Assembly: GCA_027492205.1 (NCBI GenBank) | Contig: JAOZFN010000006.1 | Span: forward strand, 71,369-135,368 | Direction of reading: 5' to 3' | Length of the DNA: 64,000 nt | From: Thermoproteota archaeon | GTDB taxonomy: Archaea; Korarchaeota; Korarchaeia; Korarchaeales; Korarchaeaceae | In this document: positions 5,496-54,481 of the stretch, one piece after another | Layout: every line of letters begins with the position of its first letter | Position numbering within the stretch: position 1 is the first letter of the stretch | Translations under genes and position numbers: made by a program | The notes under the pieces: generated by a model | Databases searched by the model: none | What the model was told of the DNA's origin: nothing | What the model saw: only the letters and a program-made list of their open reading frames with translations

Positions 5496-6563
5496 ATGCC
5501 GCCCGCGCTTCCCTGGACCGTCAGGCTCGAGGGCGACAAGGTCGTCCTGATAGATCAGACGGCCCTCCCCGAACGGCTCAGGTTCGTGGAGTGTCGGGAC
5601 GTCGAGTGCGTGGCCCGCGCCATAGAGACCATGGTGGTCAGGGGCGCCCCGGCCATAGGGGCGACGGCCGCGTACGGGCTGGCCCTGGCCGCGATTACGT
5701 CCCCCTCTAGGGACCCCGGGGGTCTCATGAGGGACCTCGAGGCCGCGGCCGAGAGGCTGAGGAGGACCAGGCCCACCGCGGTCAACCTCTTCTGGGCCAT
5801 CGAGAGGATCATGAGGGCCGCAAGGTCCGCGTCGGAGTCCGGGGATGCGGGTGAGATAAGGAGGACGGTCGTCTCGGAGGCCGAGAGGATAGCCCAGGAG
5901 GATGTGGAGGCCAACAGGTCTATAGGGAGACACGGAGCCCAGCTGATCGAGGACGGCATGACGGTGATGACGATCTGCAACGCGGGCACCCTCGCGACGG
6001 TGTGGTACGGGACGGTGACCGCGCCAATATACACGGCCTGGGACGAGGGCAAGAGGTTCTCCGTGATCGCGCTCGAGACGAGACCCGTCCTACAGGGGGC
6101 GAGGCTCACCGCCTACGAGCTCCACGCCGCCGGGATACCGGTGACCCTGATAGTCGACGGGGCCGCCGCGCACACGATCCGCGAGAGGGGGGTGGACCTC
6201 ATCCTCGTCGGCGCTGACAGGATCCTGAGGGACGGGACGGTCTACAACAAGATCGGCACCTACTCGCTCGCCCTCGCCGCCAGGGCTCACGGCGTCCCCT
6301 TCTTCTCGGTGGCCCCCACCAGCACCTTCGATCTGGAGTCAAGTCGCTCGGACGTGAAGATAGAGGAGAGGAGGCCGGAGGAGGTCACCACGGTGAGGGG
6401 CGTGAGGATAGCCCCAGAGGGTATCGACGTCTACAACCCGGCGTTCGACATGACGCCCCCCCACCTGCTCACGGGGATAGTCACCGAGAGGGGGATACTC
6501 TACCAGCCGCTCAGGTTGAGCATAGCCAGGGCGTTCAAAGAGTCAGCGGACGCCGGTCACTAG
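5496..6563 (+). CDS. mtnA: Methylthioribose-1-phosphate isomerase (eIF2B-like family)
   Basis: MVVRGAPAIG, RPTAVNLFWA, TICNAG, ETRPVLQGARLT, GADRI, NKIGTY, NPAFD motifs. Confidence 0.92.
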   Translation: MPPALPWTVRLEGDKVVLIDQTALPERLRFVECRDVECVARAIETMVVRGAPAIGATAAYGLALAAITSPSRDPGGLMRDLEAAAERLRRTRPTAVNLFWAIERIMRAARSASESGDAGEIRRTVVSEAERIAQEDVEANRSIGRHGAQLIEDGMTVMTICNAGTLATVWYGTVTAPIYTAWDEGKRFSVIALETRPVLQGARLTAYELHAAGIPVTLIVDGAAAHTIRERGVDLILVGADRILRDGTVYNKIGTYSLALAARAHGVPFFSVAPTSTFDLESSRSDVKIEERRPEEVTTVRGVRIAPEGIDVYNPAFDMTPPHLLTGIVTERGILYQPLRLSIARAFKESADAGH

Positions 6564-27718: not shown

Positions 27719-28459
27719 ATGCCCAAGCTGGGGAGGCTCCTTCACCTGAGGATGCAGCCCGATGAGGTTCCGGAGAGGGTCGTTCTGACGGGCGATCCCG
27801 GTAGGGTGGATAGGATCGCCGGGCTGCTCGACGAGCCCAGGGTCCTGGCCCACAACAGGGAGTTCCGGTCTGTGAAGGGGGAGTACGAGGGCGTGGAGAT
27901 TCTGATCTGCTCGACTGGAATTGGGGGGCCCTCGACCGCGATCGCTGTCAACGAACTCCTAGAGGCCGGCGCGGAACTCCTGATCCGGGTGGGGACGACC
28001 GGCGCCCTCCAGAGGGGGATCGAGATAGGGTCGCTCGTCGTGCCCCACGGCTCCCTCCGGATGGATGGGGCCTCGGAGTTCTACGCCCCCGCGGAGTACC
28101 CGGCGGTTCCCGACCCGAGGCTCGCGCTTGCGCTGTCGAGAGAGGCCAGGCTGAAAGGGCTCACGGTTTACGAGGGCGTAATCGCGACCCTGGACGCCTT
28201 CTACGTGGACGAAGAGTGGCTGATCGAGCAGGCCGGTGAGCTCAACCTACTCTCCGTGGAGATGGAGTGCAGCACGATATTCGTCCTCTCTCGTCTATTG
28301 GGCGCCAGATCGGCCGCCGTCCTGGTGGTCGATGGGAACATCGCCGAGGGGACGGGCAAGGCGGAGATCAGGCCGTCAGCCTCTGAGCTGCCTGAGGAGT
28401 CGCAGGACGCGCTGATGCGCGCGGCCGAGGTCGCGCTCAGAGTTCTCTCCTCGGAGTAG
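27719..28459 (+). CDS. Uridine/purine nucleoside phosphorylase (PNP_UDP_1)
   Basis: GDPGR, REF, STGIGGPS, RVGTTG, VEME. Confidence 0.88.
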   Translation: MPKLGRLLHLRMQPDEVPERVVLTGDPGRVDRIAGLLDEPRVLAHNREFRSVKGEYEGVEILICSTGIGGPSTAIAVNELLEAGAELLIRVGTTGALQRGIEIGSLVVPHGSLRMDGASEFYAPAEYPAVPDPRLALALSREARLKGLTVYEGVIATLDAFYVDEEWLIEQAGELNLLSVEMECSTIFVLSRLLGARSAAVLVVDGNIAEGTGKAEIRPSASELPEESQDALMRAAEVALRVLSSE

Positions 28460-47233: not shown

Positions 47234-48622
47234 ATGGGCGGCCTCCGGAGGGTGTACATAGAGACCCACGGTTGCACCGCGAACAGGGCGGACTCCGACA
47301 TCATGGCGGCGCTGCTCGAGCGCGCCGGATTTCAGCTGGTGGAGTCCCCCCAGGCGGCAGACGTGATAATCCTCAACACCTGCAACGTGAAGAAGCCCAC
47401 CGAGGACAGGATGGCGCACCGGATCTCCCGGCTGGCGAGCACTGGTCGGCCGGTGGTAGCCGCCGGCTGCATGGCCCTCACCCAGCCGGGGAGGCTCAGA
47501 CCCCACGCGAAGGTCCTCCTCGGGCCCAAGTCCGTGCACAGGGTGGTAGACGCCGTTGAGATTGCCCTGCGCTGGGAGAGGGCCGAGTTCCTCGAGAGAG
47601 ATCCGCTCGACAAGGCGGGCTTGCCGAGGACTCGTGGTAGGGTTATCTCGGCTCCCCTGCCCATAGCGGAGGGCTGCCTGGGAGCCTGCACCTTCTGCAT
47701 CACCAGACTCGCCCGAGGAAGGCTGAAGAGCTTCCTTCCGGACGCGATCGTCGAGAGGGCCAGGGAACTACTCTCCGGAGGTGCGGTGGAGCTTCTGATA
47801 ACGGCTCAAGATACGGCTGCCTACGGCTGGGACACCGGCTGGACCTTGCCGGGGCTGCTCGAGAGGATCTTGAAGATCCCCGGCGAATACAGGTTGCGGG
47901 TGGGGATGGCCAACCCGAACACGCTCGCGAGGGTGATCGACGACCTCCTCGTCACCATGAGGGACCCGCGGGTGTATCGGTTCCTGCACGTTCCCGTGCA
48001 GAGCGGGAGCGATGACGTGCTGAGGAGGATGGCCAGGGGTTACAGAGCCGAGCTGTTCGAGAGGCTGGTTTCGAAGTTCCGGGCCGCCTTTCGCGACACC
48101 ACCCTGGCCACCGACGTAATCGTGGGCTTCCCCGGGGAGACCGAGGACGACTTCGAGATGACCGTTGGGCTGCTGGAGAGGACGAGGCCGGATGTCGTGA
48201 ACATAAGCAGATACGGACCCAGGCCTGGCACTCCGGCCTCGAGGTGGAAGTCCCCCGATCCTGCGACCGTCAAGCGGAGAAGCAGACTGATTTCCGAGCT
48301 CGTCAAAGAGATCAGCCGTAGGGGGAACGAGGCCTACGTTGGCGATGAACTCACGGTTCTCGCCCTGGAGCGTGGCCCCAAGGGGTACCAGGGCAGGACG
48401 GACTTCTACAGACCCGTTGCCCTGGTGGGGTCCGACGTGGAGCTCGGCAGCTTCTACGACGTGGTCATCGAGGAGGCCAGGCCCACCTACCTGGTGGGCA
48501 GGGTACTGGCCAAGAGGGAGGTGAAGCCGCTGGAGGTCACGTCAACAGTCACTCGGTCGGGAAGTAGTCGTAGATTGGCCACTGGGCGGGACGGAATCCC
48601 TCGGCGGCGCGCGGCTCCGTGA
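47234..48622 (+). CDS. tRNA t6A methylthiotransferase (archaeal MtaB/CDKAL1-like)
   Basis: ETHGC..N, NTC.VK, AGC, GCLGACTFC, QDT.AYG, PVQSG, IVGFPGET, TRAM domain. Confidence 0.9.
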   Translation: MGGLRRVYIETHGCTANRADSDIMAALLERAGFQLVESPQAADVIILNTCNVKKPTEDRMAHRISRLASTGRPVVAAGCMALTQPGRLRPHAKVLLGPKSVHRVVDAVEIALRWERAEFLERDPLDKAGLPRTRGRVISAPLPIAEGCLGACTFCITRLARGRLKSFLPDAIVERARELLSGGAVELLITAQDTAAYGWDTGWTLPGLLERILKIPGEYRLRVGMANPNTLARVIDDLLVTMRDPRVYRFLHVPVQSGSDDVLRRMARGYRAELFERLVSKFRAAFRDTTLATDVIVGFPGETEDDFEMTVGLLERTRPDVVNISRYGPRPGTPASRWKSPDPATVKRRSRLISELVKEISRRGNEAYVGDELTVLALERGPKGYQGRTDFYRPVALVGSDVELGSFYDVVIEEARPTYLVGRVLAKREVKPLEVTSTVTRSGSSRRLATGRDGIPRRRAAP

Positions 48623-49643
48623 GCACCAATACGTAGAGGTTGCTGGAGTAGCCCGCCACGGAGTCCGCCAGGTTCGGTCTGCCCATCGCCTTGGCGACCT
48701 CTTCCGCGAGCCAGTAGATTGGGCTGTCCCTCGCGACTAGATAGTGGTTGAGCCCAACGGCGACCCTCTCGACCGCAAAGCCCATCTCCCCGAAGCTCCT
48801 GAATACCCGGCTGATGTGGGACCCGAGTTCGTCGGGCAGGATGCAGACGTATCCCCTGCGCCCCCTCTCTTTTACCAGCGCCTCCCAACCCCTCAGCGTG
48901 AATGTCTGGACCCCGGGGAGGGTGTACGTCGGATCTGCCACGAAGACGTCGTGTCTGTCTCGCAGATCCTCCGGGAGTGGCTTTGTCAGGTCGTGCTTCA
49001 CCACCCTGATGCTGAGCCCCTCTCGCCTCGCTATGTCCTCTATCCTCCGAATGACCCGCTCGTCGAGTTCGAACACGGTTACGCTGACGTCGAAGCTGGC
49101 AGCGAGCACCACGCTCTGGAAGTCGTCATCCCCCATCACCGCGACGCTCTTGCCGTCAAGGGGGACGTCAGACGCGATCTCCGCAATCCTCTCGAGGAGG
49201 CTCTCCTTCGACACTTGGAGCTGGTCGAACTCGTAGTTCACATCTATCTGGGGCACCAGTCCTAGGACGCCGGGGTCCGGAGAGGTCTTGCCGAATGGGT
49301 TGACCCTGAACTCGACCTCCCCGTTTGAACCGATTTCAACGAGGCCGACCTCTTCGAGCGACCTGGCCAGGTTGAGCGCCCTCTCCGGTATGAGAGGGAC
49401 CTCCTTAATGAGCCCTCTTAGGCTTCCAATCTGGTGGAGCCTGTACGCTAGAACCTCGTACTGAAAGAAGGACAGCCTGTGAACCAACTCCCACGAGAGT
49501 CGTCCCTCTTCCGGCGACTTCCTCCCGTACACCGTGCCCGCCGCCTTGACGGTGGACTCCATGTCGTAGCGGGAGAAGAGTTCGAAGGCCCTCCTCAGGG
49601 CCTCCCTGGGGGATCCCCCCCGGGGAGAGGCGGGATCACTCAT
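48549..49643 (-). CDS. bpsA: Branched-chain polyamine synthase-like (BpsA/DUF43) aminopropyltransferase
   Basis: EFDQ, GKSVAVMGDDD..S, ELDER, HDL, DVFVADP.YT motifs. Confidence 0.78.
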   Translation of the reverse strand: MSDPASPRGGSPREALRRAFELFSRYDMESTVKAAGTVYGRKSPEEGRLSWELVHRLSFFQYEVLAYRLHQIGSLRGLIKEVPLIPERALNLARSLEEVGLVEIGSNGEVEFRVNPFGKTSPDPGVLGLVPQIDVNYEFDQLQVSKESLLERIAEIASDVPLDGKSVAVMGDDDFQSVVLAASFDVSVTVFELDERVIRRIEDIARREGLSIRVVKHDLTKPLPEDLRDRHDVFVADPTYTLPGVQTFTLRGWEALVKERGRRGYVCILPDELGSHISRVFRSFGEMGFAVERVAVGLNHYLVARDSPIYWLAEEVAKAMGRPNLADSVAGYSSNLYVLVLTEPRAAEGFRPAQWPIYDYFPTE

Positions 49644-50001
49644 TCTTCCTTACCCTTCCCGCGCTTATCTCGACTATGCTATCGGTCTCCGGCTTCAGCC
49701 TCTCCCTCAAGAACTCCAGGGCCCTCTTCGCCCAGTCAGACTCTCCCGGGGCGAAGTCGACTATGTTCACGGTCGCGTAATCGTGTTCTGGCCACGTGTG
49801 AAGGGCAACATATCCCCTCTCGGTGAGCAAGAGCGAACTGACGCCGTACGGCTCGAACTCATGTATGTGAAGGGCCTTCACTTCTGACCCCACCACCTCC
49901 GCGAGCTCCCTCAGCATGGCCTCCATCTTCCTAGGGGAGTCGAGTATCTCAGACTCCCCGACGTTGTAGAACTCGACAACCACGTGGTTCTCCAGGGACA
50001 T
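49636..50001 (-). CDS. AdoMetDC (SpeD/SpeH)-like protein lacking the pyruvoyl-forming serine
   Basis: HVVVEF, HEFEPYGVS, HTWPEH.YA.V retained. ESH replaced by ERG, C-terminal catalytic Cys absent. Confidence 0.82.
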   Translation of the reverse strand: MSLENHVVVEFYNVGESEILDSPRKMEAMLRELAEVVGSEVKALHIHEFEPYGVSSLLLTERGYVALHTWPEHDYATVNIVDFAPGESDWAKRALEFLRERLKPETDSIVEISAGRVRKNE

Positions 50002-50048
50002 CTCGCCTGATGAGGTGATCCGACCTAAAAAAGGCCGCTGGGCGGGGC

Positions 50049-50732
50049 TCAAAGCCCCTCTGAAGATCCAGGAGTGAGCTCCACCACCTCAGCATCCACC
50101 TTCCGGGCCCTGATCTCGTCCCTGAGCTTGTCGGGAGAGCCCCACAGGACGGGGAATGTCCCGTAGTGGATGGGCAGGACCTTCGGACTGCCCAGGAGTT
50201 CGAGGGCTTTCGCCGCCTCTCTGGGCCCCATGGTAAAGTGCCCGCCGATGGGAAGGATGGCGAGCTCAGGGGAGTAGAGTTCACCTATCAGGCTCATCCC
50301 CGGGAATATGCCGGTGTCTCCAGCGTGATAGACCGTGAACCCGTCGGGGAACTTCACGACGGCGCCGGTCGGCGCCCCCAAGGGGGAGCTGTGGAGCGCC
50401 TCGGTCAGGATGACCTCGACGTCCCCGACCTTGAAGGGCCCCCCGATGTTCGCCCCCACGGCGTCTGCCCCCTTCTCAGAGGCGTGGTTCGCCAGCTCAA
50501 ATATCCCCACGACCTTCCCTCCCCTCGTCTTCGAGAGCCTTATGGCGTCCTCGAGTCCGTGGTCGCCGTGCCCGTGGGTCACGACGTAGGCCAAGACGCC
50601 GTCGGGCTCCCCCATGCCCTTGGGGTAGGCCGGGTTCCCCTGTATCCAGGGGTCAAAGAGAACCCTAACGCCCCCGGACTCGATAAGCACGTTTGCGTGT
50701 CCCAGAAAGGTCACCCTCCCCATGGTCTCCAC
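50049..50732 (-). CDS. Metal-dependent hydrolase, MBL fold (UPF0173-like)
   Basis: LGHA, DPW, THGHGDH, HSS, YHAGDT, PIGGHFTM, PIHY. Confidence 0.88.
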   Translation of the reverse strand: METMGRVTFLGHANVLIESGGVRVLFDPWIQGNPAYPKGMGEPDGVLAYVVTHGHGDHGLEDAIRLSKTRGGKVVGIFELANHASEKGADAVGANIGGPFKVGDVEVILTEALHSSPLGAPTGAVVKFPDGFTVYHAGDTGIFPGMSLIGELYSPELAILPIGGHFTMGPREAAKALELLGSPKVLPIHYGTFPVLWGSPDKLRDEIRARKVDAEVVELTPGSSEGL

Positions 50733-51575: not shown

Positions 51576-53288
51576 ATGGTGGAACAGAGCGTCGCAGAGA
51601 GGGTTGTCAGGGTAGCAGAGAGAGAAATACCAATTGGGGGCCCCACCCCGTCCGTGAGGGAGGGTGAGAAGCTCCTAAGGAGGACGCTCTCGCTGTGCCC
51701 CGAGTGCTACAGGCTGCTCCCGGCCGTGGTCTTTGAGAGGGACGGTAAGGTCTTCATTCGCAGAGTCTGCCCCGAACACGGGGAGATTGAGGAGCTCTAC
51801 TGGGGAGACGCTAGGTTCTACGAGAGGGCGTTCCGTTTCGAGGTTCCACCGATGAAGATTGAGCCGATCGTCCCCATGACTGCCCCGTGCCCGTTCAGCT
51901 GCGGCCTCTGCCCGGCCCACGGCGACATGACCGCCCTCGCGAACATAGTGCTGACCAACAGGTGCAACCTCGACTGCTGGTACTGCTTCTTCTACGCGGA
52001 GAGGGCTGGATTTGTCTACGAACCGTCTCTGGAGCAGATTAGGCAGATGGTGAGGGTTCTCAGGAGAGAGAGGCCCGTTCCAGGTCTGGCCGTCCAGCTA
52101 ACTGGGGGCGAGCCCACGCTGAGGGAGGATCTGGTCGACATCATCTTGATGATCAAGGAGGAGGGTGTAAGGCACATCCAGCTCAACACCCACGGCATAA
52201 CGTTCCTACAGAAGCCTGAGCTGATGAGGCAGGTCAGGCAGGCCGGAGTCAACACGATGTACCTGAGCTTCGACGGGGTCAGCCCGAAGACCAACGTGAA
52301 GAACCACTGGGAGATCCCCTACATCCTCGACATAGCCAGGGAGTCGGGCATGACCAGCATAGTGCTCGTTCCCACCGTGATAAACGGGTTCAACACGCAC
52401 GAGCTCGGAGACATCATTCGCTTCGCGGCCCTGAATATCGACGTCATCAGGGGGGTGAACTTCCAGCCCATCTCCCTGACCGGCAGGGTGCCTAGGTCAG
52501 AGAGGGAGAGGCTGAGGATCACGATCCCCGACGTGATAAGGCTCATCGAGGAGCAGACCAACGGCCAGATCCCGATGGACGCCTGGTACCCCGTGCCATT
52601 CGTGACATTCTTCAGCGACCTGGTCGAGGCCCTGACCGGCAAGCCCCAGTTCAAGATGACCAATCACCCGGCGTGCGGGGCGGCGACGTACGTGTTCCCC
52701 GAGTTCGAGCGCGTCGACGGGGAGAGGCGCGTGAAGAGGTTCGTCCCGATAACCGACTTCATAGACGTAGAGGGATTCAGGGAGTACGTGCTGGAGAAGG
52801 TAGAGGAACTCAGGGCCGGCGCCAACAGGTGGGTGACGCTCCTCAAGATCGCCGCCAACCTCTCCAGGTTCATCGACAGAGAGAGGCAGCCCGAGGGAAT
52901 CAACGTGCTGGCGCTCATGAGGCATGTCCTCCTCAGAAGGAACTACGATGCCCTGGCGGAGTTCCACTACAAGTCGCTGTTTCTCGGCATGATGCACTTC
53001 ATGGACCTCTACAACTACGATGTGCAGAGGGTTATGAGGTGCAACATCCACTACCTCTTGCCCGACGGGAGGGTGATCCCGTTCTGCACGTTCAACGTCC
53101 TGCCGGACCTCTACAGGGACTACATCCAGAGACGGCACGGAGTCCCCTTGGAGGAGTACGCCAGGACCCACGGGGCCAGGATGATCGGGCCTGAGAGCAA
53201 GTACAGGAGGGACGTGAAGAAGCTCGAGGCCGGAGAGCCCTACAAGAGGACCTACGCGCCCTTCATGCACCTCTGGAAGAAGTCCTGA
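51576..53288 (+). CDS. tes: Tetraether lipid synthase (Tes/GDGT-MAS) radical SAM enzyme
   Basis: N-terminal SLCPEC...CPEHG, CP..CGLC..H, TNRCNLDCWYCFFYA, QPIS..GR, HP.CG, MHFMD.YNYD..R..RC.IHY..PDGR.IPFC. Confidence 0.88.
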   Translation: MVEQSVAERVVRVAEREIPIGGPTPSVREGEKLLRRTLSLCPECYRLLPAVVFERDGKVFIRRVCPEHGEIEELYWGDARFYERAFRFEVPPMKIEPIVPMTAPCPFSCGLCPAHGDMTALANIVLTNRCNLDCWYCFFYAERAGFVYEPSLEQIRQMVRVLRRERPVPGLAVQLTGGEPTLREDLVDIILMIKEEGVRHIQLNTHGITFLQKPELMRQVRQAGVNTMYLSFDGVSPKTNVKNHWEIPYILDIARESGMTSIVLVPTVINGFNTHELGDIIRFAALNIDVIRGVNFQPISLTGRVPRSERERLRITIPDVIRLIEEQTNGQIPMDAWYPVPFVTFFSDLVEALTGKPQFKMTNHPACGAATYVFPEFERVDGERRVKRFVPITDFIDVEGFREYVLEKVEELRAGANRWVTLLKIAANLSRFIDRERQPEGINVLALMRHVLLRRNYDALAEFHYKSLFLGMMHFMDLYNYDVQRVMRCNIHYLLPDGRVIPFCTFNVLPDLYRDYIQRRHGVPLEEYARTHGARMIGPESKYRRDVKKLEAGEPYKRTYAPFMHLWKKS

Positions 53289-53344
53289 TTGCCCTCTGTC
53301 TCCCTCTTTCTCAATTTTTGTTCCCACCGTGGGAGAGGGTAGGG

Positions 53345-54481
53345 GTGAGCCGGGAGAGGCGCCACGTTGCCGTGGTGGGGGCCGGGCCGACGGGGATCAC
53401 GGCGGCGAATCTCCTCGCCGAGAGGGGTCTCGATGTGGTCCTGATATCCCGAGAGCGAGAGCCCGGCAGACCCACGATCTGCGGCGAGTTCATTCCGGAG
53501 CCAGGGTGGGCGAGGTCCATCCTCCCCGAGCACCTGTGGTGGGTCGTCGACTACACGTATGAGCTCCTGGATCTTCCGAGGACCACTCTGACGAGGATCG
53601 ACGTCCTGGAACTGAGGCTTGGATCGAGGAGGGTCGTCGAGCTGGAGTTCCCCTCCAGGGTCTTCGACAGGGCCAGATTCCTCCGCGCAGCCGCTCGCCG
53701 GGCCGAGAGGCTTGGCTCAGAGCTCAAGCTGGGAACCGCCGTGTCCGGGGTCGAGCTTCAGAGGGACGGCGTGAGGCTCTTCCTCAACGGGGGGAGGGGG
53801 GCCACCTCCCTGTACGTGGACTGGCTCGTGGCCGCGGACGGGGTCCCCTCCACCGCCGCCAGATCCGCGGGCCTGGGTCCGTATCGAGAGGTGGCCCTGG
53901 CGGTCAACCAGAGGAGGTCTCGGGTGAGGTACCCCGAGGACCGCCTGCTCATGTGGGTCGACTCCAGGGTGGCGCCCGGCGGGTACGCCTGGATAATCCC
54001 GAGGGGGAGGGGGACCGCAAATGTGGGGTTGGGTTACCCTCTCCCCTCCCCCCGCTCGGCGGCCGAGTACTTCTCGAACCTTGTCGCCAGGCTCCCTCAG
54101 CTATCCGACTCTTCGCCCGAGGATGAGCTCAGGGGCAGAATTCTCCCCGTGGCTGGCCTCAGGGACCGCCTTCACGTCGGTCGGCTTCTCCTCGCCGGTG
54201 ACGCCGCGGGGACGTGCATACCCTCCAACGGGGGCGGAATAAACACAGGGATGATATCGGGCGCGCTGGCCGGGAGCTCTATTGCCGACGGCGGAGGCGG
54301 AGCGGCCTACGAGTCAGCGATGAGGGCCCACATAGCGCCGATCCTGGGCAGGGCGCTGAGGTTCAGGAGGATCGCCACCCTCCTGATGAAATACGCGCCG
54401 GTCTGGGACCTGGTGTCGGCGATCCTTCCCAAAGGGCTGGTCAGGTCGGCGGTTACTCTCTCCGACTGGCCAGGGGCCTGA
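53345..54481 (+). CDS. Geranylgeranyl reductase family FAD oxidoreductase
   Basis: VVGAGPTG, CGE, DR, ADG, PGGYAWIIP, ANVG, GDAAG..P..GGGI. Confidence 0.82.
   Translation: MSRERRHVAVVGAGPTGITAANLLAERGLDVVLISREREPGRPTICGEFIPEPGWARSILPEHLWWVVDYTYELLDLPRTTLTRIDVLELRLGSRRVVELEFPSRVFDRARFLRAAARRAERLGSELKLGTAVSGVELQRDGVRLFLNGGRGATSLYVDWLVAADGVPSTAARSAGLGPYREVALAVNQRRSRVRYPEDRLLMWVDSRVAPGGYAWIIPRGRGTANVGLGYPLPSPRSAAEYFSNLVARLPQLSDSSPEDELRGRILPVAGLRDRLHVGRLLLAGDAAGTCIPSNGGGINTGMISGALAGSSIADGGGGAAYESAMRAHIAPILGRALRFRRIATLLMKYAPVWDLVSAILPKGLVRSAVTLSDWPGA

Follow-up and report, generated by a model that had tools for sequence, protein, structure and literature searches.

A conserved Ser-less SpeD protein of the Korarchaeaceae as a putative non-processing subunit of a two-gene S-adenosylmethionine decarboxylase

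The Ser-less SpeD gene and its conservation

We analysed a stretch of 64,000 nucleotides (the window) from a Thermoproteota archaeon of the family Korarchaeaceae (assembly GCA_027492205.1, contig JAOZFN010000006.1, positions 71,369 to 135,368; the genome is called G000 below), which carries on its minus strand a gene with the fold of SpeD, i.e., S-adenosylmethionine decarboxylase (AdoMetDC), but without the serine that forms the pyruvoyl cofactor. AdoMetDC catalyzes the step that commits the pathway to spermidine and, in thermophiles, to long and branched polyamines. The Ser-less gene (49636..50001; product P0001, 121 aa) is the middle member of a head-to-tail minus-strand trio, between a hydrolase gene upstream and a gene for a protein (P0002) related to the branched-chain polyamine synthase BpsA downstream, and a MiaB-like gene converges on the trio. 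P0001 may be the non-processing subunit of an AdoMetDC, whose other subunit would be a Ser-containing paralogue encoded elsewhere in the same genome.

The translated minus-strand open reading frame (ORF) of P0001 contains GVSSLLLTERGYVALHTWPEH. The ATG at 50001 is favoured as its start over a TTG at 50052, because the orthologues begin with the same MSLE or MALE. P0001 matches PF02675 (AdoMet_dc) with 78 bits (cut-off 25), which places it in the class 1b family, and lies under the NCBIfam equivalog cut-off TIGR03330 (72.6 vs. 75.65 bits). Its AlphaFold2 (AF2) model (predicted local distance difference test, pLDDT, 90) has as best Foldseek matches in the PDB the AdoMetDCs of Thermotoga maritima and Aquifex, with a template modelling (TM) score of 0.81-0.84; next come the N-terminal domain of human spermine synthase (Foldseek E 4e-6) and then eukaryotic AdoMetDCs. 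With the canonical class 1b SpeD of T. maritima (TM0655; PDB 1tlu, 1tmi, 1vr7), whose numbering is used here, it shares 32-33% identity, equal length and secondary structure, but it differs in the residues of the chemistry: in an ungapped HMMER alignment Arg62/Gly63/Tyr64 of P0001 stand opposite Glu62/Ser63/His64, and Cys83 stands opposite Pro85, after a two-residue insertion. The codons of Gly63 and Tyr64, which replace the pyruvoyl-forming Ser63 and His64, are found at 49810..49815 (tcc and ata on the plus strand, i.e., GGA and TAT on the minus strand). An earlier note on this DNA, made from the sequence alone, had stated that the Ser, the following His and the downstream Cys are all gone, which is correct; its pairing of an Arg in P0001 (ER) with the Ser of the active enzymes (ES) is shifted by one residue in this alignment and does not stand.

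The genera within the Korarchaeaceae were labelled g1-g5 (G000 belongs to g1). With P0001 as a query against 41 related genomes, close orthologues (E 1e-27 or better) were found in 20 genomes, and orthologues are present in every searched genome of g1, g3, g4 and g5 and in none of five in g2. After all loci had been fetched, the Ser-less form was present in 26 genomes from four of the five genera. All 26 have Gly63-Tyr64 and none has Cys83 (the corresponding column 83 of a profile hidden Markov model, HMM, is Phe or Tyr throughout); no internal Glu-Ser pyruvoyl site exists in any of them (Arg62-Gly63 in P0001). The protein is thus incapable of forming a pyruvoyl group, as the earlier note had concluded from a single sequence. 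The orthologues are 38-95% identical to P0001, and 28 positions of a 17-sequence alignment are invariant. The ratio of nonsynonymous to synonymous substitutions (dN/dS) is 0.05-0.28 for most pairs, where dS is informative, indicating purifying selection; it is 0.49 in the closest pair, where changes are few, and three pairs are saturated. The loss of Ser, His and Cys is neither chance nor recent decay, since orthologues that retain the ESH motif, which recent pseudogenization would have left behind, were not seen among the 26 genomes. A decaying pseudogene or a functionless relic, to which the loss of Ser63, His64 and Cys83 could by itself point, is extremely improbable in view of the frame, which is intact in every one of these genomes, the invariant positions across such a range of identities and the selection on the gene.

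A Ser-containing paralogue with complementary residues

A profile search of the genome found exactly two PF02675 genes in G000. The second, Ser-containing one (contig C16, 165222-165608) lies 44 kb away, outside the window, and is the kind of speD paralogue for which the earlier note had proposed to search: it passes the NCBIfam cut-off and shows the motifs GESH, HTWPEH and SSCKD in this order. In a tree of 94 rows and 120 columns the Ser-less and the Ser-containing clades are each monophyletic (supports 99 and 100), sit on long stems (0.95 and 1.58) and have a matching genus structure. Neither an origin by duplication inside the family nor one by transfer is established by this tree, in which the two clades are not sisters. 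A conserved convergent neighbour gene for a protein of about 277 aa accompanies the Ser-containing paralogue in g1, g4 and g5 (L001:1954-2781, L133:1881-2714 and L140:1883-2722).

To compare the two forms, the key columns of an HMM built from alignment A1 were read for the Ser-less proteins of 26 genomes and the Ser-containing proteins of 16. Glu10 is invariant in both. Ser63, His64 and Cys83 are present in all 16 Ser-containing proteins and in none of the 26 Ser-less ones (Gly and Tyr at the first two positions). Conversely, Phe49 and Ser55 are present in all 26 Ser-less proteins and in none of the 16 Ser-containing ones, which have Arg, Lys, His or a gap in place of Phe49, and Ile or Leu in place of Ser55. 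His68 and Glu72 are again invariant in the Ser-less form (26/26 each), whereas the Ser-containing form has replaced His68 by Thr in g4 and by Arg in g5, keeping it in 14 of 16, and has Glu72 in only nine of 16 (Asp in six, Gly in one). In Korarchaeota outside the family there is just one SpeD, of the canonical type. It combines all these residues in a single chain, position 55 being Thr, and it scores 143-158 bits in Pfam, against 75-97 for either paralogue of the family.

The two forms go together: of 31 family genomes, 22 have a Ser-less beside a Ser-containing paralogue, four have the Ser-less form alone (completeness 72% in G002, 82% in G011, 92% in G022 and 95% in G004, whose assembly is in about 230 contigs), four genomes of g2 have none, and a genome with the Ser-containing clade alone was not found among the 31. 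The g2 genome G018 encodes a weak, divergent SpeD of 112 aa (L142:1474-1812) with Gln-Ser-His and a Cys, and with Glu for His68, which fits neither clade cleanly; no Ser-less partner and no SpeE were found in this genome, which is 71% complete.

We then surveyed Ser63 in 163 SpeD domains from 156 proteins (P0001, P0003-P0007 and the 150 best representative matches). It is missing from 12 domains, i.e., six korarchaeal ones, five within longer proteins of several domains (P0019 and four SpeD-SpeD tandems) and a free-standing one (P0156). At the level of loci, 12 of 160 (80 metagenome and 80 genome-contig loci) were Ser-less, and all 12 are korarchaeal. P0156 (131 aa) has Gly63, and a metagenome scan with it gave 80 loci (best identity 52%), each of which has Ser63 and lacks a second SpeD gene. 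In P0019 (320 aa) a Ser-less SpeD domain (Ala63, with Phe49, His68 and Glu72 kept) is followed by a C-terminal part that looks SET-like by eye. A division of residues like that between the korarchaeal paralogues recurs in six tandem SpeD-SpeD proteins of bacteria among the representative matches: the domain with the pyruvoyl Ser and the Cys is mostly without Phe49 and Glu72, and the other domain has Phe49, His68 and Glu72 in six of six and Ser55 in five, lacks Cys83 in all six and lacks Ser63 in three. P0067 shows this division in reversed domain order, and its Ser-containing domain is without residues 49, 55, 68 and 72; judging from these residues, a chain of this kind can presumably be functional only through a composite site.

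Neighbouring genes and pathway context

The downstream gene (48549..49643, minus strand, 364 aa) encodes the distant BpsA-family (PF01861) aminopropyltransferase-like protein P0002. Its start precedes the stop of the Ser-less gene by 8 bp, positions 49636-49643 being common to both in different frames, and the ORF coordinates agree in this with the intact frame and the overlap reported in the earlier note. P0002 matches PF01861 with 108 bits and has no match in NCBIfam; its residues 137-274 match Tk-BpsA (E 2e-16), the GDDD and DPxYT motifs are kept in seven of seven orthologues, and its AF2 model (pLDDT 82) has Tk- and Tth-BpsA as the top nine Foldseek matches, over the full length and with a TM score of about 0.6, well ahead of generic methyltransferases. 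By domain, GDDD motif and full-length fold P0002 is thus a member of the BpsA family. Its identity to solved or characterized BpsAs is 20-24%, and the label bpsA given to this gene in the earlier note holds for the family but not for a closer identity.

A PF01861 gene comes directly after the Ser-less gene in five of five genomes of g1 (including G000) and in the one genome of g4, the overlap being 8 bp long in both G000 and G001, and 4 bp long in G007, and in these two genera the Ser-less and BpsA-like genes are probably translated together. In g3 and g5, a convergent MiaB-like gene is found directly after the Ser-less gene, and the PF01861 profile search gave no match in 13 of 16 genomes of g3 and in four of four of g5 (the remaining three g3 genomes have matches of about 20 bits, below the cut-off); the Ser-less gene is kept in all of them. 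The BpsA link is therefore real but lineage-specific, being found in two of the four genera with the Ser-less gene, and scaffolding or regulation of BpsA, the first role suggested in the earlier note, is not supported as a general explanation. A complex of the BpsA-like protein with the Ser-less protein, predicted from alignments of 7 and 17 rows, respectively, received a score of 0.00 in a run in which the controls did not fold, and this result speaks neither for nor against such a complex.

It could still be argued that P0001 acts in trans as a dimerization or regulatory domain for the BpsA-like aminopropyltransferase, in analogy to animal spermine synthase, an aminopropyltransferase with an N-terminal domain of the AdoMetDC class 1b fold that is inactive but nevertheless required for dimerization (PMC12803844). 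The overlaps of start and stop codons, the similarity of the P0001 model to that very domain, and the presence of a further domain behind the Ser-less SpeD domain of P0019 would agree with such a role. The animal enzyme, however, is a fusion and of the SpeE type, whereas the korarchaeal proteins are encoded by separate ORFs, in G000 as well as in g4, with a BpsA-type neighbour. We regard this explanation as unlikely, because the Ser-less gene is no less conserved in g3 and g5, where the MiaB-like gene takes the neighbouring place, and because the invariant adenosyl-binding and processing residues, and their loss in the paralogue, would be left without explanation.

SpeE uses decarboxylated S-adenosylmethionine (dcSAM). 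It is present in G000 and three of four further genomes of g1, in 16 of 16 of g3, in the one genome of g4, in three of four of g5 and in none of five of g2, a phyletic pattern that is the same as that of the two SpeD paralogues, and therefore dcSAM is needed wherever the pair occurs, even without BpsA. Co-occurrence with SpeE would also fit a stand-alone pseudoenzyme, i.e., an unpaired protein that binds S-adenosylmethionine (SAM), dcSAM or methylthioadenosine non-covalently in the Phe49/Glu72 pocket and serves as a sensor, buffer or carrier, and so would the invariance of the adenosyl-contacting residues in a protein whose chemistry residues are gone. The class 1b pocket, however, lies between two chains, so that a homodimer would still be required, and the complementary losses in the paralogue, particularly that of His68 in g4 and g5, would remain unexplained; we think such a role improbable. 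With respect to the earlier steps of the pathway, G000 has an agmatinase-family gene, and no pyruvoyl-dependent PdaD was found in a search of its genome. On contig C3 of G000 (L116:410-2487) a deoxyhypusine synthase gene is followed, after 30 nt, by a gene of the pyridoxal phosphate (PLP)-dependent Orn/Arg-decarboxylase fold, whose product (351 aa; PF02784, 48 bits) is a candidate for the source of agmatine or putrescine in this genome without PdaD. The MtnA and nucleoside phosphorylase genes mentioned in the earlier note are indeed in the window (an IF-2B/MtnA-family gene at 5496-6560 and a PNP_UDP_1 gene at 27719-28456), at 43 kb and 21 kb from the locus, and are not regarded as members of the system.

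Directly upstream of the Ser-less gene is the gene of a metallo-beta-lactamase (MBL)-fold metal-dependent hydrolase (50049..50732, minus strand; NF001911, 213 bits). A joint action of P0001 with this hydrolase, in a role outside polyamines, might be suspected from their arrangement, because the hydrolase gene is the same-strand upstream neighbour in all four genera (g1, g3, g4 and g5) and overlaps the Ser-less gene by 4-11 bp in g3 and g4. In g2, however, HEAT-like, hydrolase and MiaB-like genes keep the same arrangement with no SpeD between them, and for this reason we read the hydrolase as conserved synteny and not as a partner; in G000, moreover, the two genes are separated by a spacer, and a functional partnership seems very unlikely. 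The spacer (50002-50048, 47 nt from the hydrolase stop to the Ser-less ATG, minus strand) has a GC-rich stretch followed by TTTTTTA. Its T-run at 50026-50032, 25-31 nt 5' of the ATG, could be an oligo-T terminator of the hydrolase gene or a TATA-like box for a near-leaderless transcript of the Ser-less and BpsA-like genes.

On the other side, the locus is bounded by the convergent MiaB/CDKAL1-like radical SAM gene (47234..48622, plus strand), which is a convergent neighbour also in g2, g3, g4 and g5. Its 3' end overlaps that of the BpsA-like ORF by 74 bp (48549-48622), and the protein has an Arg/Ser/Gly-rich tail here that is absent from the g3 orthologue. Just past the locus, a gene for the tetraether lipid synthase Tes (51576-53288; NF045702, 719 bits) is followed by a geranylgeranyl-reductase-like gene (53318-54478).

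A putative heterodimeric AdoMetDC and its relatives

In eukaryotic AdoMetDC each half of the sandwich contributes to the site: the pyruvoyl Ser and the Cys belong to the N-half, and the C-half provides the processing His and, on strand 12, the ribose-binding Glu. Prokaryotic AdoMetDCs carry the union of both residue sets, and their sandwich is a dimer of identical chains (PMC1282579, section 19). On this basis the Ser-containing chain of the Korarchaeaceae would have kept the 'N-half' set and lost the 'C-half' set, and the Ser-less chain the reverse, so that a heterodimer of the two would have one complete site. We take the human residues to be S68 and C82 on the one side and F223, S229, H243 and E247 on the other, and their offsets fit those of T. 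maritima (63 and 83 vs. 49, 55, 68 and 72); the roles assigned to single residues below are presumably those of the T. maritima active site.

Our proposal, to which we give an even chance, is that the Ser-less and the Ser-containing SpeD work as an AdoMetDC only when paired in a heterodimer, whose single active site is composed of residues from both chains and which would be the counterpart, without fusion, of the eukaryotic class 2 enzyme. The Ser-less SpeD would be the subunit that does not process itself, and its partner, the Ser-containing paralogue, would supply the pyruvoyl-forming Ser63, His64 and the proton donor Cys83. Across the dimer interface the Ser-less chain would donate Phe49 for adenine stacking and Glu72 for ribose binding, as well as Ser55 and His68, which the partner would need for its self-cleavage, so that, of the two sites of each dimer, one would be composite and active and the other a dead pseudo-site. 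In g1 and g4, co-translation of the Ser-less gene with the dcSAM-consuming BpsA-like gene would let the limiting subunit and the consumer rise together. The earlier note had called P0001 a catalytically dead fold, and this is justified as far as pyruvoyl chemistry is concerned; it needs qualification in another respect, because P0001 keeps every residue of the other half of the active site, which has been lost in the partner. Of the roles considered in that note, the evidence favours the second, heteromerization with a Ser-containing SpeD.

Within such a pair, the Ser-less protein looks like a site-donating subunit rather than an allosteric shell of the type of the trypanosomatid AdoMetDC prozyme, because the residues kept in it are exactly those lost by its partner. 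The prozyme is likewise a paralogue without the pyruvoyl serine, and P0001 is presumed to pair with a catalytic paralogue as the prozyme does. A prozyme-type activator, which would form a heterodimer with the Ser-containing SpeD and activate it by a conformational change without giving any residue to the active site, could draw on the same co-occurrence in 22 of 31 genomes and on the trypanosomatid precedent. The prozyme belongs to class 2, however, has lost more of the ligand-binding residues (this applies to that of T. brucei) and relieves an autoinhibition (PMC5201418), whereas in the korarchaeal protein the ligand-binding and processing residues Phe49, Ser55, His68 and Glu72 are all invariant and it is the partner that is without them. 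An activator of this kind is accordingly an explanation in which we place little credence.

Several observations weigh against the proposed heterodimer. The Ser-containing paralogue passes the NCBIfam AdoMetDC cut-off (81.1 bits), and the two SpeD genes are not adjacent. His68 is still present in the Ser-containing paralogue of g1 and of most of g3, and in these genera that chain might work alone. The canonical korarchaeal SpeDs have Thr55, which implies that Ser55 is not strictly required. The two clades are not drawn together as sisters in the tree, whose deep nodes are unresolved. The assignment of Phe49, Ser55, His68 and Glu72 to cis or trans rests on the human numbering given above and on PMC1282579, not on coordinates. 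In addition, the loss of Phe49 in the Ser-containing chain could mark a change of substrate. A SpeD-type arginine decarboxylase of Crenarchaeota is a precedent for such a change.

A close likeness to the korarchaeal pair is found in bacterial fusions of SpeD1 with a degraded SpeD2 (e.g., in Victivallis vadensis), in which one unit has Ser63 and Cys83 and the other is without Cys83 and keeps Phe49, His68 and Glu72; the korarchaeal units, in contrast, are separate genes 44 kb apart, and in an archaeon. To our knowledge, no one has proposed that the second domain of these fusions donates residues. The V. vadensis fusion has AdoMetDC activity, undergoes a single cleavage and rescues spermidine formation in E. 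coli; its authors treat the second domain as defunct and report that they detected no SpeD fusion in extant archaea (PMC10407285). The eukaryotic class 2 enzyme resembles the putative korarchaeal pair in having one site per pseudo-dimer, made of a Ser/Cys half and a His/Glu half (PMC1282579), but it is a single fused chain without detectable sequence similarity, whereas the korarchaeal proteins are ordinary class 1b proteins. In a literature search that left subscription journals mostly outside, neither a free-standing Ser-less prokaryotic SpeD nor a heteromeric class 1 AdoMetDC was found described. As far as we know, all prokaryotic AdoMetDCs described so far are homo-oligomers of one self-processing chain.

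A more far-reaching scenario, which we put forward as speculative and consider rather doubtful, sees in the Korarchaeaceae an unfused intermediate between the homodimeric prokaryotic and the fused eukaryotic AdoMetDC. Two subfunctionalized class 1b chains, each inactive alone, would share one composite site, the Ser-containing chain would need Ser55 and His68 in trans to process itself, and expression of the Ser-less chain, in two genera linked by translational coupling to that of a BpsA-like consumer, would switch dcSAM production on. A self-paired pyruvoyl chain might then have a second activity, e.g., arginine decarboxylation.

For annotation, the korarchaeal SpeD that appears to be active may be inactive alone, and, if the proposal is true, the Ser-less gene should neither be called AdoMetDC nor be dismissed as dead. 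A two-gene AdoMetDC with a non-processing, site-donating subunit would then have a quaternary design that is new among pyruvoyl enzymes, and the Korarchaeaceae would provide a living model of the duplication and specialization by which the eukaryotic class 2 enzyme has been proposed to have arisen.

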